Shown: positions 4,160 to 22,781 of the stretch, piece by piece
Position numbering within the stretch: the stretch's first letter is position 1
Layout: every line of letters begins with the position of its first letter
DNA from: an uncultured delta proteobacterium
Lineage (GTDB): Bacteria; Myxococcota_A; Polyangia; Haliangiales; Haliangiaceae
NCBI GenBank assembly: GCA_963772655.1
Contig: CAVYYE010000003.1
Coordinates: 2,865,341 to 2,888,863, forward strand
Length of the DNA stretch: 23,523 bases
Reading direction: 5' to 3'
Made by a program: the position numbers and the translations under genes
Notes under the pieces: generated by a model
Told to the model about the DNA's origin: nothing
Seen by the model: only the letters and a program-made list of their open reading frames with translations
The model's database searches: none

Positions 4160-5805
4160 CTGACGTCGGTCTCGGGGACGTCGTCGTCGGGTTTGAGCGC
4201 GGTCGCCTTGGGCAGCGTCGGCTTGGCCATCATCTTCTTGATGATCGGCGCGACCACGAATAGCGCGGCGGAGATCGCCAGCGACGTGATGATCAGCGTC
4301 ATGAACAGGAAGTGGTACCCGTGGCCCTCCGACAGACCGGCGGCACGTCCCGCGAGGTAGTTGCCGACGGCGGTGGCGAGGAACCACGTGCCCATCACCA
4401 TGCCGGCGAGCCGCGGCGGTGCGAGCTTCGACATCGACGATAGCCCGACCGGCGAGATGAACAGCTCCGCGCACGTCGATACGAAATACAGCGCGATCAG
4501 GTACATCGGACTGACGCGGTTGTAGTCGGTGTCGAGCGCGAGATCGTGCACGAACGGGAACTGCGCGAGCGTGTCGAGCGTGTCCTTGCGCTCGGTGATC
4601 GACGCCACCGTCGGCAGCAGCACCACGAACGACAGCGCCGTGAGGATCATGCCGATCGCGAACTTGATGGTCGGCGACGGTTCCTTGCCGGCCTTGGCGA
4701 GCTTGAGCCACATCCACGCGAACGGGCTCGCGAGCACGATGATGAAGAACGCGTTGGGGAACTGGTAGAAGCTGGCCTCGAGGTGGAGCCCGAGGAAGTC
4801 GCGGTGGACCATGTCCTGCGCGTACAGGGACAGCGTGGTGCTGGCCTGCTCGAACACGCCGAAGAACCCGATCGAGCCCAGGAACAGCGGCACGATCGCC
4901 GTGATCCGCTTGCGCTCCTCGGGCGCGACCATCTTGTAGTAGCCGACGAACAGGAGGATCGACGCGATGCCGAGGCCGATCCCGAAGATGTTGCCGATCA
5001 GCTCCTTGTCGAGCGTGATCACGCCGGCGGCGTCGAGCCCCCAGCCGAGCACGATGATGCCGATCAGGCCGCCGATCAGCCCCCACAGCACCGTGCGATC
5101 GCGCGCCGCGCGCCTGGGGTCGCTCGGGATCGTCGGGTGGAGGCCGGTCTCGCCGAGGGCCTTCCAGCCGGCGCGATACTGGATCAGGCCGAGCACCATG
5201 CCGAAGGCGGGCACCGCGAACGCGAACTGCCAGCACCAGTTGGGATCGATGCCGATGTCCGAGAGCAAGCCGCGGAACGTCTCGCTCTGCGCGATCAGCA
5301 TCCCGACGAACGGCGCGAAGAACGCGCCGATGTTGATGCCCATGTAGTAGATCGTGAACCCGGCGTCGCGGCGGATGTCCTTCTCGCCGTAGAGCTGGCC
5401 GACCAGCGTCGAGATGTTGGGCTTGAGAAAGCCGGTGCCGATCGCGATCAGGGCGAGGCCCGGATAGAACGTGGCATCGATCGGCAGCGCGAGACAGAAG
5501 TTGCCGAGCGCGATGCCGACGCCGCCGACCATCACCGCCTTGCGCTGGCCGATGAAGCGATCCGCGATCCAGCCGCCGGGCAGCGACAGCAGGTAGACCG
5601 AGGACATGTAGAGCGCCATCACCAGGCCCATCGACGCGGCCGACATGCCGCGGCCGCCACGCGCGACCGAGGTGACCATGTAGATGGCGAGGAACGTGCG
5701 CGCGCCGTAGTACGACAGGCGCTCCCACATCTCGGTGAAGAACAGCGTCTTGAGGCCGGCCGGATGCCCGAAAAACGCGCGGTCCGGATCCTTCGTGGCT
5801 GACAT
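4156..5805 (-). CDS. POT/PTR2 family proton-dependent di-/tripeptide transporter
   Basis: 549 aa. PTR2 signature 1 is present as GGWIADRFIGQRKAVMVGGVGIALGNF, and signature 2 as YYMGINIGAFFAP. The N-terminal ExxERFxYYG-like motif appears as TEMWERLSYYG. About 14 TM helices. RBS AAGGTG (5814-5819 on the + strand) lies 7 nt from the ATG. Confidence 0.9.
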   Translation of the reverse strand: MSATKDPDRAFFGHPAGLKTLFFTEMWERLSYYGARTFLAIYMVTSVARGGRGMSAASMGLVMALYMSSVYLLSLPGGWIADRFIGQRKAVMVGGVGIALGNFCLALPIDATFYPGLALIAIGTGFLKPNISTLVGQLYGEKDIRRDAGFTIYYMGINIGAFFAPFVGMLIAQSETFRGLLSDIGIDPNWCWQFAFAVPAFGMVLGLIQYRAGWKALGETGLHPTIPSDPRRAARDRTVLWGLIGGLIGIIVLGWGLDAAGVITLDKELIGNIFGIGLGIASILLFVGYYKMVAPEERKRITAIVPLFLGSIGFFGVFEQASTTLSLYAQDMVHRDFLGLHLEASFYQFPNAFFIIVLASPFAWMWLKLAKAGKEPSPTIKFAIGMILTALSFVVLLPTVASITERKDTLDTLAQFPFVHDLALDTDYNRVSPMYLIALYFVSTCAELFISPVGLSSMSKLAPPRLAGMVMGTWFLATAVGNYLAGRAAGLSEGHGYHFLFMTLIITSLAISAALFVVAPIIKKMMAKPTLPKATALKPDDDVPETDVS

Positions 5806-8760: not shown

Positions 8761-9948
8761 TCACGACGCCGCGACGCACGCGCGCACCAGCTTCATGTAG
8801 TGGTGCCACTTCCAGTGGCGCCCCGGATCGCTGTGATGCGAGACCCCGCCGCAGGCTCCCGCCGCGGCACGGGCATCGCTGCACAGCCGGTGCGAGGCCA
8901 GGTTCGACGGGATGTTGCCGTGGCCGAAGATGTGTTTGCGATCGACGGGGATGTGGTGCTTGACCGCGATCGCGCAGGTCAGCGCCGCCGACGCGCGGTA
9001 CTGGGTGTCGACGTAGTAGCCGCCGCCCTTCGCGCGATGCGCGAACCCCTCGTGCTCGATCCCGATCGAGTGACGGTTGAACCAGCCGTGGCCCGCATGC
9101 CACGCGTTGTCGCCCTCGTGGACCATCTGCACGATGTGGCCGTCGCGGGCGCGCACGATGTAGTGCGCCGAGGCCTGGCTCGCCGACGACTTGAACACGT
9201 GGATCGCACCCGCCATCGTGCCTTCGATGTCGTGGACGACGACGTAGCGGATCGCGTAGCCGAGGCGGCTCGAGTGATTGGGCGACGCGATCCACTGGCG
9301 CTTCGGATACTTGCCGGGCACCGGCAGCGCCTCGAGCGCGATCGCGTGCGGCCCCGGGTCGGCGGCGAGCGTCAGGTGCTCGCCGTCGGAGGTCGTCAGA
9401 TCGAAGCCGTCGGCGATCGTGGCATCGAGATCGTCGAGGGCGAACCCGGCCGCGTCGGCGTCCCCGTCGAGGCCGAGCAGCGACACCGTGGCGGTGCGTA
9501 GGTCGGTATCGTCGCGCGCGTCGGCGAGCAGCGCGGCCGCGGCGGCGGCGTTGGCATCGAGCCGGTTCTCGATGTCGGCCGGCGCATCGCCGGTGAGCTC
9601 GGACGCCCGCGCGATCTGCGCGTCCGTCAGATACATGAGGCCGTGGGCGTTGGTGTCGTCGACGTCGGCGCCGCCGACCGCCGCGGCGTCGTCGAGCGTG
9701 CCGTCGGTCTCGTCGACCTCGGTGTCGGCCGCGAGGGCATCGCCGTCGTCGGACTCGGCCGGGGCATCGACGGTCGCGACCGTGCCGGCGAGCTCGAACC
9801 GTCCGCGTTCGTACGCGATCGCGAGCAGCCACGGCTCGGGGATCGCGTAGGCGGTCGCGGCCTCGTGGATCGCCGACGCACGGGTCGCTTCGGAAGGTGG
9901 CGCCGCACACGCGGCGAGACTCAGGCAGACCAGGATTCGAAACCTCAC
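8761..9948 (-). CDS. N-acetylmuramoyl-L-alanine amidase (Amidase_2/PGRP family) lipoprotein with an acidic disordered N-region
   Basis: GTG start at 9948, preceded by a perfect AGGAGG (9952-9957 on the + strand, 5-nt spacer). Signal peptide plus lipobox LSLAAC. The C-terminal domain (YVVVHDIEGTM...HAGHGWFNRHSIGIEHEG...HIFGHGNIP) carries zinc-binding His residues typical of Amidase_2. The stop abuts the M16 stop with zero gap. Confidence 0.85.
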   Translation of the reverse strand: MRFRILVCLSLAACAAPPSEATRASAIHEAATAYAIPEPWLLAIAYERGRFELAGTVATVDAPAESDDGDALAADTEVDETDGTLDDAAAVGGADVDDTNAHGLMYLTDAQIARASELTGDAPADIENRLDANAAAAAALLADARDDTDLRTATVSLLGLDGDADAAGFALDDLDATIADGFDLTTSDGEHLTLAADPGPHAIALEALPVPGKYPKRQWIASPNHSSRLGYAIRYVVVHDIEGTMAGAIHVFKSSASQASAHYIVRARDGHIVQMVHEGDNAWHAGHGWFNRHSIGIEHEGFAHRAKGGGYYVDTQYRASAALTCAIAVKHHIPVDRKHIFGHGNIPSNLASHRLCSDARAAAGACGGVSHHSDPGRHWKWHHYMKLVRACVAAS

Positions 9949-9951
9949 GAC

Positions 9952-9957
9952 GTCCTC
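9952..9957 (-). promoter_or_regulatory. Shine-Dalgarno (AGGAGG) for the amidase gene, located in the 9-bp gap after the upstream gene stop
   Basis: tag-GAGGAC-GTC-GTG as read on the minus strand. Confidence 0.7.
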
Positions 9958-11793
9958 CTAACGGAACCGAAGGGTCTGGTGATGCATCCGCGCGATCAGC
10001 TGGGCGTACGAGTACGCCGACGGCGGTGCCATGTCCGACTTGTTGACGAAGTAGTAACCGACGCCGTGCTGCTGCCGCAGGCGCTTGCTGCCGTGCCGGA
10101 TCGCGTTGACCTCGCGCCGGATCGCGGCGAGGTCGTGGCTCGGTTGATCGAGGTAGCGGTACTGCGGATAGATCGAGTGCATGCTCGTGCCGAGCACGCT
10201 GATCGCGCGCAGGTTGATGCCGCCGCCGTACTTCATGCCCCGGGTCGAGCGGGCGAGGCGAGCGGCGGCGGTCCGTAGCGTCGACGGTGCCGCGCCCGCC
10301 ATCACCTGCGCCGTGTGCAGGTAGACCTCGAGCGCGATCCCGCGGCCGCGCCGCTTGAGGGCACGCATCAGGTACCGACGATCGCGCAGCCGCTGGGCGC
10401 CGCCGGCGTACTGCGTGAGATCGATGCTGACGTACCCGATCACGGTGCGCGGCGGCAGCCGGAGCAGCAGCTTGCGAAACCGGTGGTTGAGCGCGTGGCC
10501 GTCGGCCCAGTCGGCGGCCGCCGTGATCTCGTCGACGACGATGTAGTCGTAGCCGCTGGCGAGCTTGGCGCGCAGATACGCCGCGGTGCGCTCGACGCCG
10601 TTGGGCCGCGCGAGCAGCTCGCGCAACTTGTCGCCGTTGCGATCGAGCACGAACGCGGTGCGCCCGCCGCGCTCGTGGTTGGCCGGGTTCTTCATCCGGC
10701 CGTGCGGTCCGCTCTCGCGCTTCTCCCCGACGATGACCTCGCCGGGACAGCCACCGAGGAACTGCTCGGTCTCGTCGGCGCCCGGGCTCGCGTACAGCAG
10801 GAACCAGGGCGAGTGCTTGGTGACGTGGCAGGTCGCGGCGTAGAGCGCCGGCGCATCGGCCGGTTCCGGATCGCCGAGGCCCGGCGGCCACACGTACCCG
10901 AGCGTGCCGGCGACCGTGTAGCCGTCGCCGGTCAGGGTCTCGATGGTCTCGGGCGAGGTCTCGTAGACGCGGCAGCCGTCGGGCGCGATCAGCTCGACGA
11001 ACGCGGCCGTCCCGTCGCCGTCGTCGGACCGTGCCCAGCCGAGGAGCTCGGTGCCGTCGCCGGGCGTCGCGGTCAGGCGATCGCCGCAGGCGTCCGCGTC
11101 CGCGCGCAGGATCGGGACGTCGCCGGTTCGCTCGAGCGCGAACTGCGCGGTCGGTTGCCCGGTGTCGGCGGCGAGCGGCTGATGCGCGAGCACGAAGCGC
11201 GCCCCGATCCCGTCGGACCGTGCGGCGGAGAACACGTCGATCCGTGCGACCGCCGACGGCGTCGGACCGTCGTTCGCCAGCTCGTCCCAGTCGGCCGCGG
11301 CGTCGGTCGCGCACGACGCCGCGAGCGCCAGCACGACGAGAGATTGCCGCCGCCGCCGGATCGCGATCGCGATCAGCAGCACGACCGCGAGTCCGACGAT
11401 CGCGCCCGGCGCCGCGGTGGTCGCGCAGCCGCCGAGGTCGACCGCGTCGAGGTCGCCCGGCATGCATCGCCCACCGTCGAGCACGGCGCCGTCGGGGCAC
11501 GACACCGCCGCCGCGTCGACCGCCCAGTCGATCGGATCGTCCGGCACCGCCGCCGCATCCTCGTCGGCCTCGAGCGTCGCGTCCGCCGACTCCGGCAGAC
11601 AGCCCGCGCCCGGCAACGTGCACTCGTCGACGTCCCAGTCGACGCTGCACTCGTCGTCGCACGCGCACCCCGCGTCGCACGCCGCCGCGTGTTGGTTGCA
11701 CGTGCACGCCTGGTGATCGTCGATCTGCGCATCGGCGTTGGAGGCCGACGCGACGATCATCCACGTGACGAACCAGATCTTCCAGACGTGCAT
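9958..11793 (-). CDS. secreted Cys-rich/MYXO-CTERM-like N-module fused in frame to a glycoside-hydrolase-like (TIM-barrel) lipoprotein-like module
   Basis: ATG at 11793 with a signal peptide MHVWKIWFVTWMIVASASNA. A Cys-rich stretch (CTCNQHAAACDAGCACDDEC...) is followed by GGCATTAAPGAIVGLAVVLLIAIAIRRRRQ, which matches the MYXO-CTERM pattern (Cys, hydrophobic stretch, RRRR). A lipobox-like LVVLALAASC comes next with no intervening stop or Met. The C-terminal roughly 330 aa (GYDYIVVDEI..GYVSIDLT..EVYLHT..YYFVN) looks like a GH114/GHL-type TIM barrel, though the family is uncertain. The ORF is open upstream to 12108, but that extension lacks a signal peptide. Confidence 0.6.
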   Translation of the reverse strand: MHVWKIWFVTWMIVASASNADAQIDDHQACTCNQHAAACDAGCACDDECSVDWDVDECTLPGAGCLPESADATLEADEDAAAVPDDPIDWAVDAAAVSCPDGAVLDGGRCMPGDLDAVDLGGCATTAAPGAIVGLAVVLLIAIAIRRRRQSLVVLALAASCATDAAADWDELANDGPTPSAVARIDVFSAARSDGIGARFVLAHQPLAADTGQPTAQFALERTGDVPILRADADACGDRLTATPGDGTELLGWARSDDGDGTAAFVELIAPDGCRVYETSPETIETLTGDGYTVAGTLGYVWPPGLGDPEPADAPALYAATCHVTKHSPWFLLYASPGADETEQFLGGCPGEVIVGEKRESGPHGRMKNPANHERGGRTAFVLDRNGDKLRELLARPNGVERTAAYLRAKLASGYDYIVVDEITAAADWADGHALNHRFRKLLLRLPPRTVIGYVSIDLTQYAGGAQRLRDRRYLMRALKRRGRGIALEVYLHTAQVMAGAAPSTLRTAAARLARSTRGMKYGGGINLRAISVLGTSMHSIYPQYRYLDQPSHDLAAIRREVNAIRHGSKRLRQQHGVGYYFVNKSDMAPPSAYSYAQLIARMHHQTLRFR

Positions 11794-11872
11794 GTTCGGG
11801 CCGAAGAGCACCTCGCGTGCCGAGACTCGTCGCAGGCTCGCCGACAATGGTTTGGTCTGGTTGCCGGCGTTC

Positions 11873-11892
11873 GATCGCCCATGATCGCCCAT
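11873..11892. repeat. perfect tandem duplication of the 10-mer gatcgcccat, x2
   Basis: Read directly from the sequence. It lies in the divergent promoter region between 11793 (- gene) and 12048 (+ gene). Confidence 0.8.
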
Positions 11893-12047
11893 GACAGGTC
11901 CTGAACCTCCCCGGTGAGACGTGTCAGTTGCGCAGTGATGTCCACGGTTTGGCGAGCTGAGCCGGCGTCGATTGCGCGTACCGACCAGATCTCGCGGCGC
12001 TCGCCGCACGCCGCGGGGAGGCACGTCGGTTGCCTGTCGGCGAGCGC

Positions 12048-13001
12048 ATGACGATCTCCCGTTTCGCTGTGCTCGCCGTGCTGCTGGGTTCGATGACCGG
12101 TTGCGCACTCGACGATCCCGCCACCGACGACACCACCGACGATCCGGGTGTGTTCGAGGTCCAGACCACCGGCACCCTCCGCGGCGTCGATCGCGCGGGC
12201 GCGTTCTCGACGCGCGAGGCCAAGCGTCTCGCCCACCGTCACGCCGTGCGGTGGACCGGCGTCTACATCGGCGGTGCGTGCAACGCCGGCTACGGCTGGA
12301 GCAAGCACCGGGTGCGCGTGCTGCACGATGCGGTCGGCTGGCGGTTCCTGCCGATCTGGGTCGGACAACAGACCTCGAACATCTGCCGCCATCACCGCCT
12401 GACGTACGCGCGCGGGCTCGCCGACGGCAAGGCCGCCGTCAAGCGCATGCGTGCGTTCGGGTGGCATCCGCATCGCGAGATCCCGATCGCGCTCGACGTC
12501 GAGGGCGGCACCTACGCGTCCGCGCACCACCCGTCGACGGCCTACACCCGTGGCTGGGTCAAGTCGGTCCGCGCCGCCGGGTATCGTGCCTACGTCTACT
12601 CGAGCGAGCTCGCCGTCGAGCACTACCACGATCGCCACATCCCGCTCGACGGCGTGTGGGTCGCGAGCTGGTACTACACGAGCTTTCACGCCGCCGATCC
12701 GTCGCAGCTCTCGCTCGGCCAGCGGTATCGCCACCACGATCGGGCGTGGCAGTACGCGGGCGACTTCACGGTGACCGGGGTCGGCCGCGTCGATGGCAAC
12801 GTCTCCGATCTGCTGCTCGCGCCCGGGCCCGGCGGCACCAACGTGGAGCCCGGCACCTCGCCGCGCACGCTCGATGCCGAACCGCTGACGATCGATGACG
12901 AGGCCGCGGCGTTCGACGAGCTCGCCCTCGAGCCCGCCGACGACCCGGGTTCGCTCGACGACCTAGGTTCGCTCGACGACAGCGGCGACCTCGACGAGTG
13001 A
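12048..13001 (+). CDS. DUF1906 (Rv2525c-like, GH25-like glycoside-hydrolase fold) lipoprotein with an acidic C-terminal tail
   Basis: ATG at 12048. MTISRFAVLAVLLGSMTGC is a signal peptide plus lipobox-like TGC. WTGVYIGG..VGWRFLPIWVGQQ...IPIALDVE...AYVYSS..WVASW resembles Rv2525c-like domains. The tail DDPGSLDDLGSLDDSGDLDE is encoded by an imperfect 18-bp tandem (ggttcgctcgacgac x2). The ORF is open from 12030 (M at 12030 unlikely). Confidence 0.6.
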   Translation: MTISRFAVLAVLLGSMTGCALDDPATDDTTDDPGVFEVQTTGTLRGVDRAGAFSTREAKRLAHRHAVRWTGVYIGGACNAGYGWSKHRVRVLHDAVGWRFLPIWVGQQTSNICRHHRLTYARGLADGKAAVKRMRAFGWHPHREIPIALDVEGGTYASAHHPSTAYTRGWVKSVRAAGYRAYVYSSELAVEHYHDRHIPLDGVWVASWYYTSFHAADPSQLSLGQRYRHHDRAWQYAGDFTVTGVGRVDGNVSDLLLAPGPGGTNVEPGTSPRTLDAEPLTIDDEAAAFDELALEPADDPGSLDDLGSLDDSGDLDE

Positions 13002-13177
13002 GCCCAACCGCGACACACATGTCGCGCTCGAACGCACCACCGCGTCGCGGTGCGCCTTCCTCCGTCACCTGCTCGGCTCCGGTCACGCGTGTCCGTAGTC
13101 CTGGCGTAACCTTCGAGTTGTCGTCGTCGTGGCAGTTGTTCGCGCGACGAGCCACCGACTCGGATAGACTCGATGTG

Positions 13178-14320
13178 ATGGGGTGGCGACTCGCGGTTAT
13201 GAGTTGTCTCGTTGGCTGCTACTCGCCACGAGGCCCGGCAGGTGCGCCCTGTGGTCCCGCGGGAGAGTGTCCGAGCGGTCAGGCCTGCGTGACCCAGACC
13301 GGAGTGTGCCAACCGATCGGGACCTCGGTCGATCCCGATGCGAGTGATGCGCCGGTGTCTCCACCCGACGGTGCGAGCGACTGGTGGGATCTCGCCTGGA
13401 CCCACCGCCGCGCGATCGACGTCGTCGCCGGCGATAACGGCACCCCGGCGCGCTACTCGCTGTCGATCACGTTCGATCACGACACGCTCGTCGATACCGG
13501 CGAGGCGCTGGCATCCGGAGACGACGTCCGGATCGTGCGCGCCGACGGCGTCGAGGTCGAGCGCGTGCTCGACTCGGGCTCGGACTGGCGCTCGCCGACG
13601 ACGACCGTGTGGTTCGCCCACGAGCCGGCGCTCGCCGACAACGCTGCCGTTCGCTACTACCTCTACTACGGCAATCCGAGCGCCGGAGCGCCACCCGAGA
13701 ACGCGTCGAAGGTGTTCCTGCTCGCCGACGGGTTCGAGGGCACGCTGTCGCAGTGGTTCGCCGATGCGAGCGTCGGTCGTACGACCTCGCGCGCCCATAG
13801 CGGCACCCACGCGGTCCGCGTCCCGCCGCAGGACCAGACCGGGGTCGGGATCTCGGCGATGGACATCGACGAACGCGATGTCGTGCTCGATGCGTGGTGG
13901 AACCTCGAGGTCGCACTCGGTGCCGACGTCTCGATGGGCATTCGCGAGAACGCGACCTCGGTGTACTTCACCGACCTCCAGCAGATCGATGCCGGTCAGC
14001 CTTCGGTGTGGGACATCTCGAAGTTCGAGAGCGACACCTACACCGAGCTGGTACCGGCGCCGCCGGGCGCTCCCGGCGCGGCCGACGACACCTGGACCCG
14101 GGTGACGATCTACGCGTATCGCCACTCGATGGCGCTCGACATCGACGGCCAGCGCTACGTGCCGGAGTCGGGGTTCGCGACCGTCGACGCCGACCTGTCG
14201 GGCACGGTCGGCATGGGCGCGTACTTGACGACCGGCGACACGTTCTTCGACGACGTGACGCTGCGGCGGTTCGTGCTGCCCGAGCCGACGGTCACGCTCG
14301 GTCCCGACGAGACCCCGTAG
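13178..14320 (+). CDS. DUF2341 domain + LamG/concanavalin-like domain lipoprotein
   Basis: ATG at 13178 follows a lower-GC 175-bp intergenic region. MGWRLAVMSCLVGC is a short signal peptide plus lipobox. WWDLAWTHRRAIDV...YSLSITFDHDTLV...GDDVRIV..VWFAHEPALADNAAVRYYLYYGNP matches the DUF2341 consensus (WW..W.YR..I.I...FP...GDD..F...W..VP.L...YMYYGN). A DGFEG...W start to a LamG-like module follows. Confidence 0.65.
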   Translation: MGWRLAVMSCLVGCYSPRGPAGAPCGPAGECPSGQACVTQTGVCQPIGTSVDPDASDAPVSPPDGASDWWDLAWTHRRAIDVVAGDNGTPARYSLSITFDHDTLVDTGEALASGDDVRIVRADGVEVERVLDSGSDWRSPTTTVWFAHEPALADNAAVRYYLYYGNPSAGAPPENASKVFLLADGFEGTLSQWFADASVGRTTSRAHSGTHAVRVPPQDQTGVGISAMDIDERDVVLDAWWNLEVALGADVSMGIRENATSVYFTDLQQIDAGQPSVWDISKFESDTYTELVPAPPGAPGAADDTWTRVTIYAYRHSMALDIDGQRYVPESGFATVDADLSGTVGMGAYLTTGDTFFDDVTLRRFVLPEPTVTLGPDETP

Positions 14321-14348
14321 CTCGTCGATCGTAGCGAGTCGATCGTAG

Positions 14349-15890
14349 CTACTCGATCGTCGCCACGTGGCGCATCACCACGCGGCCGCTGGCGTCGACC
14401 AGCTTGAGGCCACCGCGGCGCGTGCCGATCAGGGTGTACGCGGTGCCGTCGACGTCGAGCGACGTGCCGTCGGCTGCGGTCACCCGCGAGGCGCCGAGCG
14501 TCGCGAGCGACATCGCCTGGTGGTGGCCGAGCGAGATCGCCGCGCCGCGCACGGTGACGGTGGTCGGAGCGACGCGCGCCATCGCGGTCGAGGTGTCGCG
14601 CGCCGGCGGCGCGTTCCACGCGATCGGGTGATCGTGGGCGATCACGACGGTCGCCGGCGCGGTGGCGATCGCGTCGATCTGGCTGACGAAGCCCTCGAGG
14701 GCCGGCATCTCGGCGAGCCAGCTGGTGGCGCCGGTCGCGGGATCGATCTTGACCATCGAGCGCGACGACAACAGGTCGGTGCCCTCGTTGGTGCCGTCGT
14801 TGTTACCGGTGGTCGAGTTATCGAACGAGCCGACGATCACGCCCTGGATGCTCGCCATCGCGTTGGGCATGAACGACTGGTTGGCGAACACGCCGTAGTC
14901 GAGCGCCGCGATCGTGGTCTCTGCGCCGGTCGTGGTGTCCACCGAGTTGAGGTCCATCGTGCCGGCGTTGACGTTGAGATTCGCCGCCAGCAGGTTGTTG
15001 TTGTCGTCGAACACCATGCCGCCGCCGAACGCGAACCCGTTCGTGGCCACCGGCGTGACCGCCGCCGTGGTCGGGTCGATCGTGACCAGTCCGGCGATGC
15101 CCGAGTGGCCGTACAGCGTCGCGCCGTCGAACTTGATGTCGGCGATGTGGTGCTCGTTGTTGCCGTCGGTCAGCGTGCCGATCACCGTCACCTTCGCGGT
15201 CTGCGGGTCGACCGTGACCAGCTGCGAGGTCTTCGTGAGCCCCGCGGCCGTGGTGCCGAACAGCGTGCCGTTGCCGTCGAACGCGAGGCCGGTGAGGCCG
15301 TACGTCGTGTTGGCGTCGGTGGCGTCGGTGAGGATGTCGATCACGCCCCAGAACCCGTTGGTCGGATCGATCAGGTAGAGGAAGCCGTTGTCGAGGCCGC
15401 GGCCATCGGCGGCGTAGATCGCGAGGTACTCGAACGACGTCGTGACGCTGCCCTTGTCGGTGGTCACCGTGACCGTGGTGTCGATCGACACGCCCGGCGG
15501 GATCACGCCGGCGATCCGGTTCGGCGTCACCGCGGCGATCGTCGCGGCCTGGTCGCCGAACTTCACGGTGACGTTGCCGGCGCCCTGACCGGCGAAGTTG
15601 GTGCCGTCGATCGCGAACACCGTGCCGCCCGAGATCCCGGCCGCGCCCGGCGTGATCGCCGTGATCGTCGGAATGCCGACGTCGTCCTGACCGTCGGGAA
15701 CGCACTCGCCGTTGGCCTCGTGCGTGCCGGTGCCGCAGGTCAGCCCGTCGGGCGGCGGGGTGCCATCGGGCACGCACACCCCGTCCATCTCCACCGTTCC
15801 CGTACCGCACGTGATCGTCGTGCCCGCGGGGTCAGATCCACCACACGACACCAACGGGAGACAGAGCAGCGTGAGGAGGACTCGCTTCAT
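14349..15890 (-). CDS. lipoprotein with an IPT/TIG domain and beta-propeller-like repeats
   Basis: ATG at 15890. MKRVLLTLLCLPLVSC is a signal peptide plus lipobox LVSC. The TIG-like segment is ITAITPGAAGISGGTVFAIDGTNFAG...VTVKFGDQAATIAAVTPNRIAGVIPPG. The motif L(V/Y)xIDPxTG recurs four times, which suggests propeller blades. Confidence 0.7.
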   Translation of the reverse strand: MKRVLLTLLCLPLVSCGGSDPAGTTITCGTGTVEMDGVCVPDGTPPPDGLTCGTGTHEANGECVPDGQDDVGIPTITAITPGAAGISGGTVFAIDGTNFAGQGAGNVTVKFGDQAATIAAVTPNRIAGVIPPGVSIDTTVTVTTDKGSVTTSFEYLAIYAADGRGLDNGFLYLIDPTNGFWGVIDILTDATDANTTYGLTGLAFDGNGTLFGTTAAGLTKTSQLVTVDPQTAKVTVIGTLTDGNNEHHIADIKFDGATLYGHSGIAGLVTIDPTTAAVTPVATNGFAFGGGMVFDDNNNLLAANLNVNAGTMDLNSVDTTTGAETTIAALDYGVFANQSFMPNAMASIQGVIVGSFDNSTTGNNDGTNEGTDLLSSRSMVKIDPATGATSWLAEMPALEGFVSQIDAIATAPATVVIAHDHPIAWNAPPARDTSTAMARVAPTTVTVRGAAISLGHHQAMSLATLGASRVTAADGTSLDVDGTAYTLIGTRRGGLKLVDASGRVVMRHVATIE

Positions 15891-15966
15891 GAGCTGCCTA
15901 CACCACGTTTCGGGCGGTTCGCACAAGATCGAATTCGCGCCAGGCATGTTGCCGGCGTGAGCCGAG

Positions 15967-16320
15967 TTACGTTTCGGCCGAGATCGGTGCCGACAACAGG
16001 TCGACCCAGACGTCACCGTCGACGATCGTCACCCGGTAGCGCCGCAGGGTCAGCGTCGGATCGTGCTCGCACGCACCGGTGCGCAGGTCGAACACGTAGC
16101 TGTGACCGGGACACGTCAGCTCGCAGCCGACCAGCTTGCCGCCGGCGAGCTCGACGTCCTCGTGCGGGCACACGCCGGGGGTCGCGACGATGTCGCCGGC
16201 CTCGCCATCGTCGCCTTCCAGGCGCACGACGAGCACCGGCCACGTGACGCCCTCGACCGCGAACGCGCGCGGCTGGTCGCCGACGTCGGTCACGCTGCAC
16301 ACGCGCACGCGCAGCGCCAT
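15967..16320 (-). CDS. small Rieske [2Fe-2S] domain protein (NirD-like ferredoxin)
   Basis: 117 aa. The Rieske ligand motifs CPH (CxH) and CPGH (CxxH) are separated by 16 residues: CPHEDVELAGGKLVGCELTCPGHSYVFDLRTGAC. Its ATG overlaps the upstream permease stop as ATGA at 16317-16320. Confidence 0.8.
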   Translation of the reverse strand: MALRVRVCSVTDVGDQPRAFAVEGVTWPVLVVRLEGDDGEAGDIVATPGVCPHEDVELAGGKLVGCELTCPGHSYVFDLRTGACEHDPTLTLRRYRVTIVDGDVWVDLLSAPISAET

Positions 16321-17216
16321 CACCGCCTCCCGCGTTGTCGCGGATCCGACCAGTCGCGAAGACCGTCGCCGAGCAGGTTGGCGCCGAGCACGACCCACAT
16401 GATCGCGAGGCCGGGAACCAGCGCGTAGAGCTCGACCCAGTCGGTCTTCCACAAGAACGTGCGCGCCTGGTCGAGCATCGCGCCCCACGCGTAGTCGGTG
16501 TGCGTGCCGAGGCCGAGGAAGCTGAGCGTCGCCTCGACGAGGATCACCGCCGCGAACCCGAACGACATCTGCACGAGCGCCGGACCCATCAGGTTCGGCA
16601 CCAGGTGGCGCCACATCACGCGCACGTTCGAGGCGCCGAGCGCGACGGTGGCGGTCACGTAGTCGCGTTCGCGCAGCGCGAGCACCTGGCCGCGGGCGAC
16701 GCGCGCGTAGCCGACCCAGCCGTTGGCGATCAGGGCCGCGATCAGGATCCCGAGCCCCGGGCGATCGACGGTCGCGACGATCGCGATGTTGAGCAAGATG
16801 CCGGGAAACGCCATCAGCACGTCGACGATCCGCATCACGATCTCGTCGACGATGCCGCGATACCAGCCGGCGATCGTGCCGAGTGCGAGGCCGATCGTGG
16901 CCGACACGCCGACGACGATCGAGCTGATCACCAGCGCCGAGCGCGCGCCCCACAGCAGCTGGCTCAGCGTGTCCTGGCCGCGGCTGTCGGTGCCGAGCCA
17001 GTGCGCGCCGCTGATGCCCTCGAACCGGCTGGACAGATCGATCGCGGTCGCGCTCGACACGTCGTGCGGTGCGATCCACGGCCCCAGCACGCCGGCGATC
17101 ACGAATACCGCGAGCATCACCGCGCCGATGCGTCCCGACCAGCCGAGCTGGCGGATGCCGGCGAACGCGCCCCGAAGTGCGCGCCCCGCTTGCAGTGCGA
17201 TCCGGATCGCCTTCAT
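16320..17216 (-). CDS. ABC transporter permease, DppC/OppC-like (BPD_transp_1)
   Basis: 298 aa from ATG 17216 with 6 TM segments. The N-terminal region ([30 protein letters not shown]) and conserved permease-loop region ([22 protein letters not shown]) are typical of OppC/DppC. There is an ATGA overlap with the upstream permease at 17213-17216. The ORF is open from 17984, but that extension is antisense garbage. Confidence 0.85.
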
Positions 17217-18148
17217 CCGCGACGGATCCTCGGATCGGCGAGCCCGTACGCCAGATCGACCAGCATGTTGACCACCACGTAGATCACCGCGATCACGAAC
17301 ACGGTGCCCTGCACCACGGGGTAGTTGCGCTCGGAGATCGCGTCGACCAGCGTGGTGCCGAGCCCCGGGCGCGAGAACACGTTCTCGATCACGACCGCGC
17401 CCGACAGCATCGAGCCGAACTGCAACCCGGCGATCGTGATCACCGGCAACAGCGCGTTGCGCAGCGCGTGGACGAACAGCACGCGGCGCTCGGGGACGCC
17501 CTTCGCGCGTGCGGTACGCACGAAGTCCTCGCCGAGCACGTCGACCATCGACGTCCGCGTCATCCGGGCCAGCATCGCCATCAGGTGGGTGCCGACGGCG
17601 ATCGCCGGCAAGATCAGCGCCGCCGGGCCGGTCTCCGTCGGGCCCGGCAGCCAGCCGAGCACGATGAAGAAGATCATGAGGAGCAGCGGCGCGAACATCA
17701 TCTGCGGGATCGCGATCCCGGCGAGCGAGGTCGTGGTCGCCAGCGTGTCGATCCAGGTGCCGCGCTTGATCGCCGCCAGGATCCCGAGCGGCAGCGCGAG
17801 CACGATCGCCACCAGCATCCCGGCGATCGCGAGCTCGAGCGTGTACGGGAACACCTCGCCGATCCGGGTCGCGACGTCGGGGCGGCCCTTCGCCTTCGGG
17901 CACTGGTGACCGAGCGAGCCGTCGACGATGTGGCCCATGAACGCCACGAACTGCGCGGGCAGCGGGCGATCGAGCCCCATGCACTCCTCGATCTTCTGGC
18001 GCTGCTCGGGGGTCGCCTCGCCGCCCGCCAGGTGATCGACCGGATCGCCCGGCACGATGTGCAGGAACGCGAACGTCAGGATCGAGACCCCGAGGATCGC
18101 GATCAACCCGGAGCCGAGCCGTCTGAGCAAGAAGCCCGCGATCGACAC
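17213..18148 (-). CDS. ABC transporter permease, DppB/OppB-like
   Basis: 311 aa with a GTG start at 18148. The N-terminus [36 protein letters not shown] is the canonical DppB/OppB start. The EAA-like loop appears as [26 protein letters not shown]. Confidence 0.85.
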
Positions 18149-18193
18149 GACGGCGAGCCTACCAGGACGGGATCGCGACTTCGCGACCCGGAG

Positions 18194-18673
18194 CTACTTG
18201 AGCGCGACCGCGCAGAACCGAGGCAGCGCGTTGGCGTCGAACGGCGTGCCCGGCGCCAGCACCGGCTCGCCGCCGTGCGAGATCATGTCGCTGAGGTCGC
18301 GGCACTCGTAGCCGTCGCGGCAGTCGCCGTCGCCGTTGCACTTGCGCATGCAGAACCGGACCTCGCTCGAGCGCGGCACGCAGTTGCCGACCAGCGAGCA
18401 CAGCTCGTCGAGGCCGCAGTCGTCGGTCGACACGCCCTCGGTCGCCGGATCGCACGTCAGGTTCGAGAAGTTGCCGGTGAAGAACCGCACGCACACGGCC
18501 TCGCTCGGGCAGGTGTCGAAGTCGCAGCCCTGGATCGTGCAGTACCCGCCCTGGCTGCTCGAGTCGCACTGGCGCTCGCCGGTGGGGCTGCAATCGGAGC
18601 TGACGATGCACGCGTCGCCGATCTCCTTGCCGCATCCGGCGGCGACGAGCGCGACGAGTACCAAGTACCTCAT
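18194..18673 (-). CDS. small Cys-rich lipoprotein (17 Cys in about 160 aa), hypothetical
   Basis: MRYLVLVALVAAGC is a signal peptide plus lipobox VAAGC. An in-frame ATG also exists at 18685 (MPALM...). The many Cys fall in CxnC spacings suggesting a disulfide-rich extracellular domain. It is the first gene of the permease operon. Confidence 0.6.
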   Translation of the reverse strand: MRYLVLVALVAAGCGKEIGDACIVSSDCSPTGERQCDSSSQGGYCTIQGCDFDTCPSEAVCVRFFTGNFSNLTCDPATEGVSTDDCGLDELCSLVGNCVPRSSEVRFCMRKCNGDGDCRDGYECRDLSDMISHGGEPVLAPGTPFDANALPRFCAVALK

Positions 18674-18773
18674 GAGGGCCGGCATCCTAGCGGCCGTTTC
18701 GACCCCCGTAAAGCCGCGGTGGTTGCCTGAGCGAAGACCGAGATCTTCATCACTTGGGTGGTATCACCGCCCC

Positions 18774-19226
18774 ATGCGAGCCGTGGTCCAGCGAGTCACC
18801 CGCGCCGAGGTCCGTGTCGACGGCCAGCCGACCGGCACGATCGCCGGCGGGCTGCTCGTCCTGCTCGGGGCCGGGGCGGGCGACACCGCCGCCGACCTGG
18901 CGTACATCGTCGACAAGGTCACCAACCTGCGGATCTTCGCCGACGACGCCGGCAAGATGAACCGGAGCGTGCTCGACGTCGGCGGGGGCGTGCTCGTGGT
19001 GTCCCAGTTCACGCTCTACGGCGACGCTCGCCAGGGACGCCGGCCGTCGTTCATCGGGGCGCTCGAGCCGGCGGCCGCGAAGGCCCTGTACGAGCAATCC
19101 CTCGACGCGTTCCGTGCCGCCGGGGTCGCCCGCGTCGAGGCCGGGCAGTTCGCCGCCGACATGGCGGTCGAGCTGGTCAACGACGGCCCGGTGACGATCC
19201 TTCTAGATTCGCGCAAGCGGTTCTAG
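18774..19226 (+). CDS. dtd: D-aminoacyl-tRNA deacylase
   Basis: 150 aa. MRAVVQRVTRAEVRVDGQ...GLLVLLG...NLRIF.D..GKMN.SV.DVGG.VLVVSQFTL....GRRPSF...ELVNDGPVTILLDS has the Dtd hallmarks, including the SQFTL and NDGPVT motifs. Confidence 0.9.
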   Translation: MRAVVQRVTRAEVRVDGQPTGTIAGGLLVLLGAGAGDTAADLAYIVDKVTNLRIFADDAGKMNRSVLDVGGGVLVVSQFTLYGDARQGRRPSFIGALEPAAAKALYEQSLDAFRAAGVARVEAGQFAADMAVELVNDGPVTILLDSRKRF

Positions 19227-19278: not shown

Positions 19279-20208
19279 ATGAAGGTCAGGTTCTGGGGAG
19301 TTCGCGGTTCCATCCCCGTACCCGGTCGGGCGACCAGCCGGTACGGTGGAAACACGTCGTGCGTCGAGGTGCGGCCCAAGGGCGCGTCGCCGATCATCAT
19401 CGATGCGGGCACCGGGCTCCGGCGGCTGGGCAAGTCGTTGACGCAGGAGGCGTTCGGCGAGGGTAAGGGCACCACGACGATCCTGATCAGCCACACGCAC
19501 TGGGATCACGTGCAGGGCCTGCCGTTCTTCTCGCCGCTGTACCGCGCCGGCAACGCCGTCCACATCTTCGCCCGCCAGCGCGACACCCACCTCGAGGCGG
19601 TGTTCAGCCAGCAGCACGAGCTGCCGTACTTCCCGGTGCCGCTGTCGGCGATGCGCGCGGACATGTACTTCCACGAGCTCATCGAGGGCGCGCGGTTCGA
19701 CGTCGGCAAGGCCACGGTCACCACCGCGCGGCTCAACCATCCGTGGATCGCGATGGCCTACCGGATCGATGTCGATCGCGCGTCGGTCGTGTACTGCGCC
19801 GACACCGCGCCGTTCACCGACATCCTGTTCGGGCGCGAGTTCATGACCACGCCGCCCCGGCTCGATCAGGATCTGCCGCCGGAGGTCGTCGACGAGCTCG
19901 CCAAGATGCGCGCCGCCGTGGTCGCGCTCGCGAAGAACGCCGACCTCCTGATCTACGACACCCAGTTCACGATCGACGAGTACCGGCTGCGCCCGCACTG
20001 GGGACACTCGCATCCCGACGACGCGATCCAGATCGCGCGCGATGCCGGCGCCAAGCGGCTGTGCCTGTTCCACCACGCGCCGACGCGGTCCGACGACGAC
20101 AACGACGCGATCCTCGCCAAGTACCGCGAGGTCGTGACCGCGCAGCACGACAAGTTCGAGCTGATGAGTGCCTACGAGGGACTCGAGATTCCCCTGGGGG
20201 ACGAATGA
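19279..20208 (+). CDS. MBL-fold metallo-hydrolase (copy 1)
   Basis: 309 aa. MKVRFWGVRGSIPVPG..YGGNTSCVEV at the N-terminus and the metal-binding motif HTHWDH. Intact. Confidence 0.8.
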   Translation: MKVRFWGVRGSIPVPGRATSRYGGNTSCVEVRPKGASPIIIDAGTGLRRLGKSLTQEAFGEGKGTTTILISHTHWDHVQGLPFFSPLYRAGNAVHIFARQRDTHLEAVFSQQHELPYFPVPLSAMRADMYFHELIEGARFDVGKATVTTARLNHPWIAMAYRIDVDRASVVYCADTAPFTDILFGREFMTTPPRLDQDLPPEVVDELAKMRAAVVALAKNADLLIYDTQFTIDEYRLRPHWGHSHPDDAIQIARDAGAKRLCLFHHAPTRSDDDNDAILAKYREVVTAQHDKFELMSAYEGLEIPLGDE

Positions 20209-20248
20209 CCAGACCAACGTGCGGGCAAATGCCGGCCGGAGGTCGGCG

Positions 20249-21113
20249 ATGAAGATCCGGTTCTGGGGAGTCCGCGGCTCGATCCCCGCGCCCGGACCCG
20301 ACACGATTCGCTACGGTGGCAACACCTCGTGCGTGTCGGTACACACCGCGAGCGGCGGGCTGGTGATCATCGACATGGGCACCGGGCTCATGCACCTCGG
20401 CAATGCCCTGATGGCCGGCGAGTTCGGCAAGGGTCAGGGCCGCGCGCTGTTCCTGCTGTCGCACACGCACTGGGATCACATCCAGGGGCTCGGCTTCTTC
20501 CCGCCGGTGTTCGTCGGCGGCAACCAGTTCACGGTGTGGGGGCCCGGCGACACGCCGGAGGTGCTCGAGCAGATCCTCGAGGGCCAGATGGATCCCAACT
20601 TCTCGCCGCTGCAGTCGCTCAAGAACTTCTCCGCCGGGTTCGACGTCCGCTCGCTGACCTGCGGCAAGCCGTGGGAGGCCGAGGGCGTGTCGATCATCGG
20701 GCAGGAGCACCCGCACGGCGGGACGATCGCGCTCGGGTTCCGGATCACCGAGGGCACCGGCGCCGCGGCGAAGACGTTCGTCTACGCCTCCGATGTCGGC
20801 TACCCGGAGACCGGGCCGTCCGACGAGGCGATCGCGTTCTACCGGGGCGCCGACGTGCTCCTCCACGACACCACGTATCGGCCCGCCGACCAGGCGACGC
20901 GGCGCAACCGCGGGTTCGCGTCGTACGAGGACGCCGCCGACGCCGCGGTCAAGGCGAAGGTCAAGCGCCTGGTGATGTTCCACTACGACCAGGACTACTC
21001 CGACGACGACGTCGACGAGATTCTGCGAGCTCACGCGCGCCGCGCTCGACACCCGCGGCGGCAAGGCCATCGGGCTCGTCCCGGCGCGCGAAGGCGACGA
21101 GCTCGAGGTCTAG
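20249..21113 (+). CDS. MBL-fold metallo-hydrolase (copy 2, tandem paralog) with an apparent frameshift about 30 codons from the 3' end
   Basis: MKIRFWGVRGSIPAPG..YGGNTSCVSV and HTHWDH are present. GGAGGT sits 5 nt upstream of ATG 20249. Coding signal is in frame 2 to about 21027 (...SDDDVDEIL), then continues in frame 0 (ELTRAALDTRGGKAIGLVPAREGDELEV*) to TAG 21111-21113. This parallels the copy-1 C-terminus. Frame 2 beyond 21030 is non-coding by codon usage. Confidence 0.6.
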
Positions 21114-21119
21114 CGCGTC

Positions 21120-21617
21120 GTGGCCTTCGACCTGATCGCCGAGCTCGAAGCGCTCGTCGATGCGTTCGAACGCGAGCACGTCGAGTACGCCGTGTGCGGG
21201 GGGCTGGCGCTCGCCATGCACGGGTACCCGCGAGCGACGATGGACATCGACGTCCTCGTGCCCGCCTCACAACTCGCCGAGGCGATGCGTATCGTTCGTT
21301 CCCTCGGATTCGACGTCCCCGCACGCAAGATGACGTTCGGCCTCCAGGCCGGTACGCCACGCGAGGTCCAACGGATCTCCAAGCTCGATCCGACGACGGG
21401 CGAGCTGCTCCCGGTGGACCTTTTGGTCGTCGCGCCAGATCTCGAGGAAGTCTGGAACACGCGGATGCCGACCCGAAGCGGCACGAGAAAACTCGTCATC
21501 GTCTCCCGCGAGGGCCTTGCTACGATGAAGAGGATCGCCGGACGACCCAAGGACCTCCTCGATCTCGCCCAGCTCGAACATGACGACACCAACGGCAACG
21601 ACTCCGGACCGGCGTGA
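21120..21617 (+). CDS. Pol-beta-superfamily nucleotidyltransferase-like protein (short AbiEii/MNT-like family)
   Basis: 165 aa with a GTG start at 21120 (first start after the MBL2 stop; no clear SD). The NTase motif appears as CGGLALAMHGYPRATMDIDVLV (hG[GS]..x9-13..DhDh). The C-terminal RIAGRPKDLLDLAQL is typical of this family. GC3 is noticeably lower than in flanking genes. Confidence 0.55.
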   Translation: MAFDLIAELEALVDAFEREHVEYAVCGGLALAMHGYPRATMDIDVLVPASQLAEAMRIVRSLGFDVPARKMTFGLQAGTPREVQRISKLDPTTGELLPVDLLVVAPDLEEVWNTRMPTRSGTRKLVIVSREGLATMKRIAGRPKDLLDLAQLEHDDTNGNDSGPA

Positions 21618-21757: not shown

Positions 21758-21916
21758 ATGTCGCAGGCCGCCTTGGCCCGGCGGCACGAGGACATGCGTC
21801 AGCTCTACAAGCTGATGATGTACCTGCGGCACGCCCGCTACGTCGGCCCCGTCGAGCCCCGCGCCGTCGATCCGGACGCCGTCAGCGACCGCCGAACGCG
21901 CGGCTCTGGGCGTTGA
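21758..21916 (+). CDS. small ORF 2 (52 aa), paralog of small ORF 1
   Basis: The product is MSQAALARRHEDMRQLYKLMMYLRHARYVGPVEPRAVDPD.... The ATG lies 10 bp after the small ORF 1 stop (GTG 21731 is also in frame). 15 of the first 24 residues are identical to small ORF 1, with 6 synonymous codon differences. The 3' end overlaps the convergent gene by 35 bp. Confidence 0.35.
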   Translation: MSQAALARRHEDMRQLYKLMMYLRHARYVGPVEPRAVDPDAVSDRRTRGSGR

Positions 21917-22781
21917 GAAAGATGCCGCCCATCCAGCTGTCGTCGATCAGGCTCTTGCCGGCGACCACGCCGAGCTGGCCGAACGGCGAGAACCACCAGC
22001 CGCCGCGCACGCGGGCCTCGACCACGCCCGTCGCCCGGAGGATCGACGTCTGCTGCTCGCACGCGCCGTAGCTCGACGCGTAGTTGTACATCAGCGAGCG
22101 ACCACCGCCCGCGACCTCGGCGCCGAGGGCGAGATGGCCGGTACGACCGGCGAGGCCGAGCGCGACATCGCCGCCGACCAGCATCACGCTCGTCGGGCGG
22201 ATCGTCGGTGCGCCGCGTGCGCCGACGTCGAGCATCGTCGCGTGCGCGTCGTCGCCGACGCCGCCGATCTCGCCGTCGAACGCCAGATACAGCCCGCCCG
22301 GCAAGCCGATGCCGAGTCGCATCGCGAACGCCAGCGCGGTGTCGCGATTCGGTGCGCCGCCGCCGCTCGGCGGCTGGACCACGCGATACGAGAACGTCTC
22401 GTCGTTGTGGGTCACCAATCCGTTGGCCTCGCCGAGTGGGCTCGCGAACTCGCGCATCACCATCCCCATCTCGAGGATGACCTTCGGTAGCCGGAGGTTG
22501 GTCGCCCACTTGCCGTACGGCGTGCAGTGCCGGAACCCGACGATGTCCGTGTCGTCGACGCACGCCGGGGTCGAGCTGCTCGAGCTGCCCGAGTCGCTGT
22601 AGCTGCTCCCGCCGCCACCGGAGCTTCCGCCGGAGCTGCCGCCCGAGCTCCCTCCGCTCGAGCCGCCGCCGCCGCAACTGCCGCCTCCGCCACCACCACC
22701 ACCGCCACCGGCGAGGGCGACTCCGGGTCGCATCGCCACCAGGCTCGCGATCGCCAGGCCGAGCGTGATCGCGCGCTTCAT
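21882..22781 (-). CDS. secreted protein with a poly-Gly/Ser linker and a C-terminal domain of unknown function
   Basis: ATG at 22781 with GGAGGTG 6 nt upstream. It forms an ATGA overlap with the upstream lipoprotein. Signal peptide MKRAITLGLAIASLVAMRPGVALA, then G10-SC-(GGSS)n-S-rich, then about a 230-aa Gly/Ala-rich domain. ORF 21882..23330 in the track carries an N-terminal out-of-context Arg-rich extension. Confidence 0.6.
   Translation of the reverse strand: MKRAITLGLAIASLVAMRPGVALAGGGGGGGGGGSCGGGGSSGGSSGGSSGGSSGGGGSSYSDSGSSSSSTPACVDDTDIVGFRHCTPYGKWATNLRLPKVILEMGMVMREFASPLGEANGLVTHNDETFSYRVVQPPSGGGAPNRDTALAFAMRLGIGLPGGLYLAFDGEIGGVGDDAHATMLDVGARGAPTIRPTSVMLVGGDVALGLAGRTGHLALGAEVAGGGRSLMYNYASSYGACEQQTSILRATGVVEARVRGGWWFSPFGQLGVVAGKSLIDDSWMGGIFLNAQSRAFGGR
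22596..22725. repeat. low-complexity GGN/GCC-type coding repeat (poly-Gly/Ser linker)
   Basis: It is read directly from the sequence. It encodes AGGGGGGGGGGSCGGGGSSGGSSGGSSGGSSGGGGSS. Confidence 0.7.

Follow-up and report, generated by a model that had tools for sequence, protein, structure and literature searches.

How a pair of ATP-binding cassette (ABC) importer permeases can operate when neither an ATPase nor a substrate-binding protein is encoded beside it, and why such a pair should be joined to a Rieske-type iron-sulfur protein, are the questions raised by an operon on contig CAVYYE010000003.1 of an uncultured delta proteobacterium. The stretch analysed, hereafter the window, comprises 23.5 kb of DNA with a G+C content of ~70%, and its nearest relatives are metagenome-assembled genomes (MAGs) labelled Kofleriaceae, Myxococcales or Myxococcota. 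On its minus strand, with 14 kb of window sequence towards one end and 5 kb towards the other, lie the genes for a cysteine-rich lipoprotein (CysLipo; 18194-18685, 163 aa), a DppB-type permease (17213-18148, 311 aa, GTG start), a DppC-type permease (16320-17216, 298 aa) and a soluble Rieske-type [2Fe-2S] ferredoxin (15967-16320, 117 aa). We consider it probable, at roughly 60%, that the two permeases represent a translocator of the PepT family whose ATPases and receptor are encoded in trans.

The assignment of the permeases to the DppB and DppC types, already proposed in the initial annotation, is well founded. Both proteins match the Pfam family BPD_transp_1 (cut-off 26.4), with 141.7 bits (2.9e-41) for the DppB-like and 87.9 bits (9.2e-25) for the DppC-like protein, and their nearest chains in the PDB are E. 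coli DppB (8z1v_A, 1.6e-72) and E. coli DppC (8z1v_B, 6.4e-50), respectively. The DppB-like permease additionally contains BPD_transp_1_N (50.8 against a Pfam cut-off of 23.8). In the DppC-like permease, the OppC_N match reaches 20.9 and thus stays under the Pfam cut-off of 23.9, and its identity as the C-type subunit is backed by a full-length alignment to E. coli DppC and by the NCBIfam models for C-type proteins. Among the NCBIfam models, the DppB-like permease scored best against an Opp2B/NikB-like one (311.7 bits, cut-off 350), with further matches to GsiC, DppB and NikB, and the DppC-like permease against Opp4C (239.8 bits, cut-off 350), with further matches to Opp1C, Opp2C and NikC.

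No ABC ATPase was detected in the window, in which no open reading frame (ORF) combines a Walker A motif with an LSGGQ-type signature, and Pfam revealed no SBP_bac_5 domain among the large window ORFs judged to be likely genes. The claim that the operon contains no ATPase or substrate-binding protein (SBP) gene therefore holds for the window ORFs scanned. Relatives were collected in two ways. A scan with DppC as a query and one genome per GTDB species returned 13 Myxococcota loci (L001-L013, 60-79% identity) and three actinobacterial outgroup loci (L014-L016, about 33% identity), and a metagenome scan with an eight-sequence alignment of distant lipoprotein members returned 80 loci, of which 37 were informative, their sequence extending 1.3 kb or more beyond the lipoprotein gene on its downstream side. 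In ten of these 37 loci, the lipoprotein gene is directly followed by DppB and DppC genes, with DppB proteins that are 52-58% identical to that of the window (46% in the exceptional locus L084); in the remaining 27, it is not. The flanks (up to 10 kb) of the 13 related Myxococcota loci contained no ABC ATPase ORF, and none was found in the ten distant loci with lipoprotein-DppB-DppC, in which DppC is the last gene of the operon and unrelated genes follow. The only nearby ORF with a Walker A motif, in locus L092, was considered as a transporter ATPase and rejected as UvrA-like. Similarly, SBP_bac_5 was absent from the Pfam-labelled called genes of five further loci (L021, L023, L107-L109). ATPase ORFs do occur near the permease genes in all three actinobacterial outgroups; in L014 and L015 they come immediately downstream, in L016 they lie a few kilobases upstream. 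The clade stably lacks adjacent ATPase and SBP genes, as 13 genome and 10 distant metagenomic loci show, and this is not the result of a local deletion. Adjacent genes of this kind, anticipated in the initial annotation as evidence against an unusual operon, were found neither in the window nor in the flanks of its relatives.

The main argument for ATPases encoded elsewhere comes from the surfaces on which they would dock. In the E. coli DppBCDF complex, the 'RTA' helix of DppB contacts DppD and the 'TAS' helix of DppC contacts DppF (PMC12136057), and in our alignments the coupling helices of the window's DppB and DppC match these two elements. The DppB coupling helix (EDY[IV]RTARAKGL) is nearly invariant among the ~23 sequences aligned, which stem from 13 genomes, 10 distant loci and locus L099, and that of DppC has the canonical form RDY/F-V-x-A-A-x-A-x-GAS, read as AARA.GAS in its orthologues. 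This strong conservation of ATPase-docking helices makes ATPases encoded elsewhere the likeliest solution. With E. coli DppABCDF (8z1v; PMC12136057), the locus shares the BPD_transp_1 heterodimer, the RTA/TA-type coupling helices and the DppB scoop, a segment discussed below, whereas it and its relatives lack dppA, dppD and dppF in the operon or within about 10 kb, and it has a lipoprotein gene upstream and a Rieske gene downstream of the permease genes.

Opp/Dpp-type permease pairs without adjacent ATPase and SBP genes follow a known genomic pattern, because there are precedents both for permeases of this type and for shared ATPases. Borrelia burgdorferi has two permease pairs, OppB1C1 and OppB2C2, which share OppDF as the single ATPase pair, and its five OppA genes are scattered (PMC5736914). 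It thus offers a direct precedent for partners in trans, including scattered binding-protein genes, although its shared ATPases have been identified, whereas we infer those of the present system, and although it lacks a Rieske or cysteine-rich lipoprotein partner. Shared multitask ATPases are also documented for the MsmK/MsiK sugar systems, MceG and FhuC. In these cases, too, permease operons without an ATPase gene of their own are energised by an ATPase encoded elsewhere; the sharing has been experimentally shown there, but the systems belong to other ABC subfamilies (CUT1, Mce and siderophore) and not to PepT.

On the reading we favour, DppB and DppC would together make up the translocator, in the membrane, of a type I ABC importer from the PepT family (Opp/Dpp/Nik-type). 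Shared DppD/F-like ATPases, encoded elsewhere in the genome, would dock on the coupling helices of the two permeases, and a cluster-C binding protein or another periplasmic receptor would deliver a peptide or metal-chelate substrate. In Kofleriaceae, the Rieske protein would have become translationally coupled to DppC as an accessory and not as a core subunit. If so, the locus would provide one more example of an Opp/Dpp permease pair that relies on parts encoded elsewhere, which would come as no surprise. For annotation, the practical consequence is that such permease pairs should not be called incomplete or pseudogenic.

Several points weigh against this account. Its trans-acting ATPases and receptor are deduced and not seen. 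The NCBIfam scores of both permeases fall below every equivalog cut-off, so that no substrate class can be assigned, and neither a riboswitch, for which Rfam gave nothing, nor a regulator hints at a substrate. In addition, the conserved 1-nt overlap between the DppC and Rieske genes is unusually tight for a dispensable accessory. Finally, lipoprotein, DppB and DppC are also found as a trio in another genomic setting, which hints at a closer functional tie between the lipoprotein and DppBC than our account assumes.

The Rieske protein itself is a genuine ferredoxin. It matches PF00355 with 48.3 bits (Pfam cut-off 20.3; 9.7e-13) and also Rieske_2, and its ligand set, CPH-x16-CPGH, is complete and retained in the orthologues. 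It lacks a signal peptide and is presumably located in the cytoplasm. In the PDB, the chains closest to it belong to soluble ferredoxins that serve dioxygenases and monooxygenases (2i7f, 1e-08; 2qpz; 1vm9; 1fqt), and its NCBIfam scores of at most 47.7, against cut-offs of at least 113, permit no equivalog-level ferredoxin assignment. With BphF, TmoC and the ferredoxins of NDO and carbazole dioxygenase, Rieske-type ferredoxins of ring-hydroxylating oxygenases that are its best matches by sequence in NCBIfam as well as in the PDB, it shares the soluble, single-domain architecture of about 105 aa and the CxH...CxxH pattern, but it differs from these oxygenase ferredoxins in being coupled to an ABC permease. 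No oxygenase or ferredoxin reductase genes were found in the window or in the flanks of its relatives. Only assemblies and metagenomes of the Kofleriaceae type yielded orthologues (104 aa, 57-74% identical), and those among the matches that carry a name are all labelled Kofleriaceae.

At the level of the genes, the link between the Rieske protein and the permeases is close. The DppB and DppC genes overlap by a stop/start ATGA at 17213-17216, which the sequence bears out as first described and which is present in all 12 related loci whose contigs include this junction. The second overlap had likewise been given as ATGA, at 16317-16320, and this proved wrong: the DppC stop codon TGA occupies 16322-16320 and the Rieske ATG 16320-16318, so that direct reading of the sequence yields the junction TGATG (16318-16322) with one shared base. 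An alternative, in-frame GTG start at 16323 would give GTGA. A Shine-Dalgarno-like hexamer (GGGAGG, 16326-16331) lies 5 nt 5' of the Rieske ATG. Despite the corrected junction, DppC and the Rieske protein are tightly coupled in translation, and the proposed coupling of a [2Fe-2S] protein to DppC is upheld by the intact ligands, the tight junction and its conservation in relatives. The Rieske gene directly follows DppC in 12 of the 13 Kofleriaceae-like genomes and also in L021-23, L107 and L109, and 11 of the 12 relatives that keep it show either a 1-nt overlap (TGATG or TAGTG) or a 2-nt spacer. In locus L001, about 100 nt of extra sequence, including a short duplicated segment, separate the DppC stop from the Rieske start. 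In the same locus (10925-13045), the Rieske frame runs without a stop into the ORF of a lipoprotein rich in tetratricopeptide repeats, reflecting either a fusion or an assembly frameshift.

Does this arrangement reflect a role in transport, or is the Rieske gene a functionally unrelated passenger that owes its place after DppC to strong synteny and compact spacing? We regard the latter as possible but doubtful. In its favour, the Kofleriaceae region is syntenic over more than 15 kb, so that adjacency alone is weak evidence for a link: in a tblastn comparison with the window proteins, 12 of the 13 loci displayed the same order, with two genes for metallo-beta-lactamase (MBL)-fold proteins and the D-aminoacyl-tRNA deacylase gene dtd on one strand, followed by lipoprotein-DppB-DppC-Rieske on the other. 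Moreover, the association has come apart repeatedly. In L004, the Rieske gene has been lost and AT-rich non-coding sequence occupies its expected place, while DppBC is kept. In L017-L020, four contigs of one lineage, the Rieske gene stands alone beside UvrB, with no DppBC or lipoprotein gene within 10 kb and with the gene for an M16 peptidase still about 5 kb downstream. In L108, it shares its strand with the M16 peptidase gene and starts 1 nt after the stop codon of the latter, and lipoprotein-DppB-DppC, followed by a helix-turn-helix gene, lie 2-5 kb away. The breakpoints in L017-20 and L108 thus fall exactly between DppC and Rieske, with the latter remaining next to M16. Neither tblastn nor a ligand-motif scan detected a Rieske gene in the ten distant loci with lipoprotein-DppB-DppC, so that distant DppBC relatives never occur with one. 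On at least three independent occasions, DppC and Rieske have become uncoupled with the other genes intact, and because of this repeated separation the Rieske protein can be at most accessory. The expected synteny of Rieske and DppBC across relatives accordingly stands for the close Kofleriaceae-like genomes and fails for the distant loci. Against a mere passenger, however, speaks that the tight junction, together with its internal Shine-Dalgarno-like sequence, is found in 11 of 12 Rieske-keeping relatives, down to a DppC identity of 60%; its maintenance points to selection for co-expression. Nor is there an oxygenase or reductase partner nearby that could account for an independent role. In L017, the stand-alone Rieske gene adjoins a DUF6036 gene related to one in the window.

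Within the favoured reading of a translocator with partners in trans, it is tempting to speculate that the Rieske protein provides redox support to the importer. E. coli DppD and DppF carry one [4Fe-4S] cluster each, and mutation of the ligands or chemical oxidation dissociates the DppBCDF complex (PMC12136057). A stable complex requires the iron-sulfur domains of DppD, DppF and OppD, the oxidation result referring to E. coli DppBCDF, and the authors state that further roles of the [4Fe-4S] domains of DppD and DppF are unknown (PMC12136057). The Rieske protein might keep these oxidation-labile domains of Dpp/Opp-type ATPases reduced. Alternatively, it might reduce the imported cargo, for instance a metal chelate or haem, or couple import to the redox state of the cell; E. 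coli Dpp is known to import haem with MppA (as cited in PMC12136057). The [4Fe-4S] domains show that iron-sulfur redox chemistry already exists in this transporter family, although the clusters reside within the ATPase polypeptides there, whereas here a separate, co-translated [2Fe-2S] protein would have to interact with the transporter, an interaction that is hypothetical. Our literature search found no paper joining a Rieske protein with DppB and DppC.

The lipoprotein at the head of the operon raises the question of whether it could stand in for the missing binding protein. The predicted product has a signal peptide (leader MPALMRYLVLVALVAAGC) and a lipobox (VAAGC) followed by 16 further invariant cysteines, which, with the lipobox Cys included, confirms the 17 cysteines counted before; the database form comprises 159 aa and starts at M5. 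Throughout the family, both the lipobox Cys and the hydrophobic leader are retained, from which lipidation is predicted. The protein has no match in Pfam or NCBIfam even at E-values of up to 10, and none of its 1082 word-sharing homologues has a functional name. The family consists of 537 clusters at 50% identity (E-values up to 0.001), and a profile of its distant members picks up proteins that bear the label Polyangia bacterium; these members are all lipoproteins, 150-300 aa long, and have their Cys framework in common. The AlphaFold2 model has a predicted local distance difference test score (pLDDT) of 87, and comparison with the PDB gave neither a fold nor a sequence match. From its sequence, the lipoprotein appears to be a periplasmic, disulfide-stabilised domain that is facultatively associated with DppBC and represents an uncharacterised family. 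Two database entries (P0280 and P0311) in which the lipoprotein domain seems to be fused to an S8 peptidase are probably merged gene calls, since the lipoprotein part has its own signal peptide.

A dedicated periplasmic receptor or partner of DppBC, in the form of a small, non-Venus-flytrap substitute for an SBP, could be imagined to dock on the DppB scoop. The scoop of E. coli DppB inserts into DppA (PMC12136057), and a scoop-type segment is kept in the DppB of our locus, between the first transmembrane helix and the next helix, even though the protein is shorter than its E. coli counterpart (311 versus 339 aa). Unlike in E. coli, this region (residues about 55-95; window 17900-18000) contains two clade-specific cysteines, in the sequences IEECMGLD and GHQCP, which by their position plausibly form a periplasmic disulfide. 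The pair is present in Kofleriaceae, in L099 and in eight of the ten distant loci, and absent from L031, L066 and the actinobacterial outgroups. These two extra conserved cysteines at the site of DppA docking fit a partner docking there, as does the lack of an SBP gene near lipoprotein-DppBC. The lipoprotein gene immediately precedes DppB in each of the 12 DppC-anchored genomes for which upstream sequence was available (the L005 contig begins within the permease genes and is excluded from upstream counts), and the trio reappears in a different genomic context at the ten distant loci, upstream of which no MBL or Dtd homologue was found; in L066, for example, the upstream genes are DnaJ-like, ThiD-like and cyclophilin-type. 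Nevertheless, we consider such a receptor unlikely. In 27 of the 37 informative distant loci, the lipoprotein occurs without DppBC, which speaks against the suggestion that it takes the role of a dedicated binding protein; most of these loci have the MBL pair on one strand, then the lipoprotein gene, a ComEA-like HHH_3 gene as the next gene and a convergent Ser/Thr kinase gene. In L099 (1-4755), DppB follows Dtd on one strand with a gap of 3 nt; a 935-aa S8-peptidase-like gene comes next and then, on the opposite strand and away from DppB, the lipoprotein gene. This alternative arrangement was noted for L099 together with L100. Furthermore, the trio occurs in L031 and L066 without the DppB Cys pair, and the mature lipoprotein, with about 140 aa, resembles no binding-protein fold. 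In the window, the lipoprotein stop is separated from the DppB GTG by 45 nt, with no translational coupling at this site, and across the relatives the gap is at least 45 nt and never becomes an overlap.

A more far-reaching proposal combines both unusual genes into a distinct Dpp-type module, in which the lipoprotein would replace or supplement the SBP and, in Kofleriaceae, the co-translated Rieske protein would act as a dedicated redox partner of the translocator, for example by helping the oxidation-labile [4Fe-4S] domains of the Dpp/Opp ATPases to stay assembled or by gating import according to the redox state of the cell. We give it little credence, and hold it just as improbable that the lipoprotein, the Rieske protein or both are true functional subunits. 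If it were true, the Rieske protein would give the iron-sulfur clusters of the Dpp/Opp family a physiological electron partner, and a natural partner of this kind would offer a handle for testing the redox control of peptide import. The disulfide-rich lipoprotein family of Polyangia MAGs merits attention in any case, being wholly uncharacterised and without a solved fold, yet represented by a confident AlphaFold2 model.

It is very improbable that the permeases work without any ABC ATPase, be it as a transporter energised by Rieske redox chemistry or as a passive or repurposed channel or anchor. This idea draws on the fact that no ATPase gene was seen near any of the 23 loci and that a redox protein is co-translated with DppC in Kofleriaceae. 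However, the ATPase-docking coupling helices are among the most conserved segments of the permeases, and we know of no precedent for an ATPase-free permease pair of this kind. The Rieske protein as an ATPase replacement was rejected, given that the distant relatives without ATPase genes also lack a Rieske gene, so that it cannot be a general energiser. It is scarcely credible that the cassette is what remains of a complete Dpp operon in decay, its ATPase and SBP genes already lost, as the missing partner genes and the junk sequence after DppC in one relative might suggest. This reading was rejected on grounds of conservation, considering that all 13 genomes and 10 metagenomic loci have intact ORFs, with protein identities of 60-80%, that overlaps and motifs are conserved across relatives, and that the ratio of nonsynonymous to synonymous substitution rates (Ka/Ks) is below 1 for all four genes, its magnitude being uninformative since Ks is compressed by an extreme bias in G+C at third codon positions (GC3).

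The extent of the conserved unit follows from the comparison of its surroundings. The initial annotation had described an operon of five genes, and the ORF list and the sequence do support five minus-strand ORFs at the positions it gave. Of these five, however, only lipoprotein-DppB-DppC-Rieske belong to the conserved unit. The fifth gene, encoding a lipoprotein with TIG/IPT and beta-propeller-like parts (14349-15890, minus strand; Pfam TIG, 9.6e-11) and starting 76 nt downstream of the Rieske gene, is genome-specific: neither it nor the rest of 8761-15966 has a counterpart in the 13 relatives L001-L013 by tblastn. In L021, L023 and L107, the Rieske gene instead abuts a convergent gene for an M16 peptidase, followed by genes for a POT/PTR2 peptide transporter, QueC and an MshEN protein. 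Because the Rieske gene of relatives abuts the M16 gene and the intervening block is unmatched, we place the TIG/propeller gene outside the conserved unit. The block of ~7 kb (8761-15966) looks like a lineage-specific insertion of cell-envelope or cell-wall genes, with a G+C content that is not deviant. It further includes an N-acetylmuramoyl-alanine-amidase-like gene (8761-9948, minus strand), a gene for a protein of 600-716 aa without assigned function (9958-12108, minus strand), and genes for an Rv2525c/GH25-like protein (12030-13001, plus strand) and a DUF2341 lipoprotein (12998-14320, plus strand). Scans for promoters and terminators found nothing.

Beyond the block, the window contains the counterparts of the gene order seen in the relatives, namely the M16 (insulinase-type) peptidase lipoprotein (5989-8760, plus strand), which is convergent with the Rieske gene in relatives, the POT/PTR2 peptide transporter as a conserved neighbour (4156-5805, minus strand), QueC (1719-2396) and the MshEN protein (about 535-1650). 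The M16 peptidase and the POT transporter near the cassette may indicate a peptide-utilisation neighbourhood or simply reflect synteny. On the other side, the gene for the D-aminoacyl-tRNA deacylase Dtd (18774-19226, plus strand), identified by tblastn synteny and by Pfam Tyr_Deacylase in relatives, is oriented divergently to the lipoprotein gene; its synteny with the cassette is conserved, and no functional connection between the two is apparent.

Next to Dtd follows the tandem pair of MBL-fold (Lactamase_B_2) genes (19279-21100). The pair adjoins the lipoprotein gene in Kofleriaceae and most distant Polyangia loci and is usually accompanied by Dtd in Kofleriaceae (loci including L021, L023 and L104-L109). 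The MBL-fold genes of relatives show weak precomputed matches to the Anti-Pycsar Apyc1 family. The second gene of the pair (from 20246) has an apparent frameshift near its 3' end, at about 21030-21113, where its frame enters Arg-rich sequence, and the conserved C-terminus of its orthologues (...VPAREGDELEV, followed by the stop) lies in the +1 frame, so that the frameshift is either genuine or due to an error of sequencing or assembly. A small nucleotidyltransferase with AbiEii/DUF6036/NTP_transf_5-like matches (E about 1e-6) is encoded at 21120-21617, immediately behind the MBL pair. The protein encoded at 21882-22742 has a long, Gly/Ser-rich N-terminal region of low complexity (GGGGGGGGGGSCGGGGSSGGSSGG), followed by a conserved domain without a Pfam match, and homologues of it are present in L001-L003.

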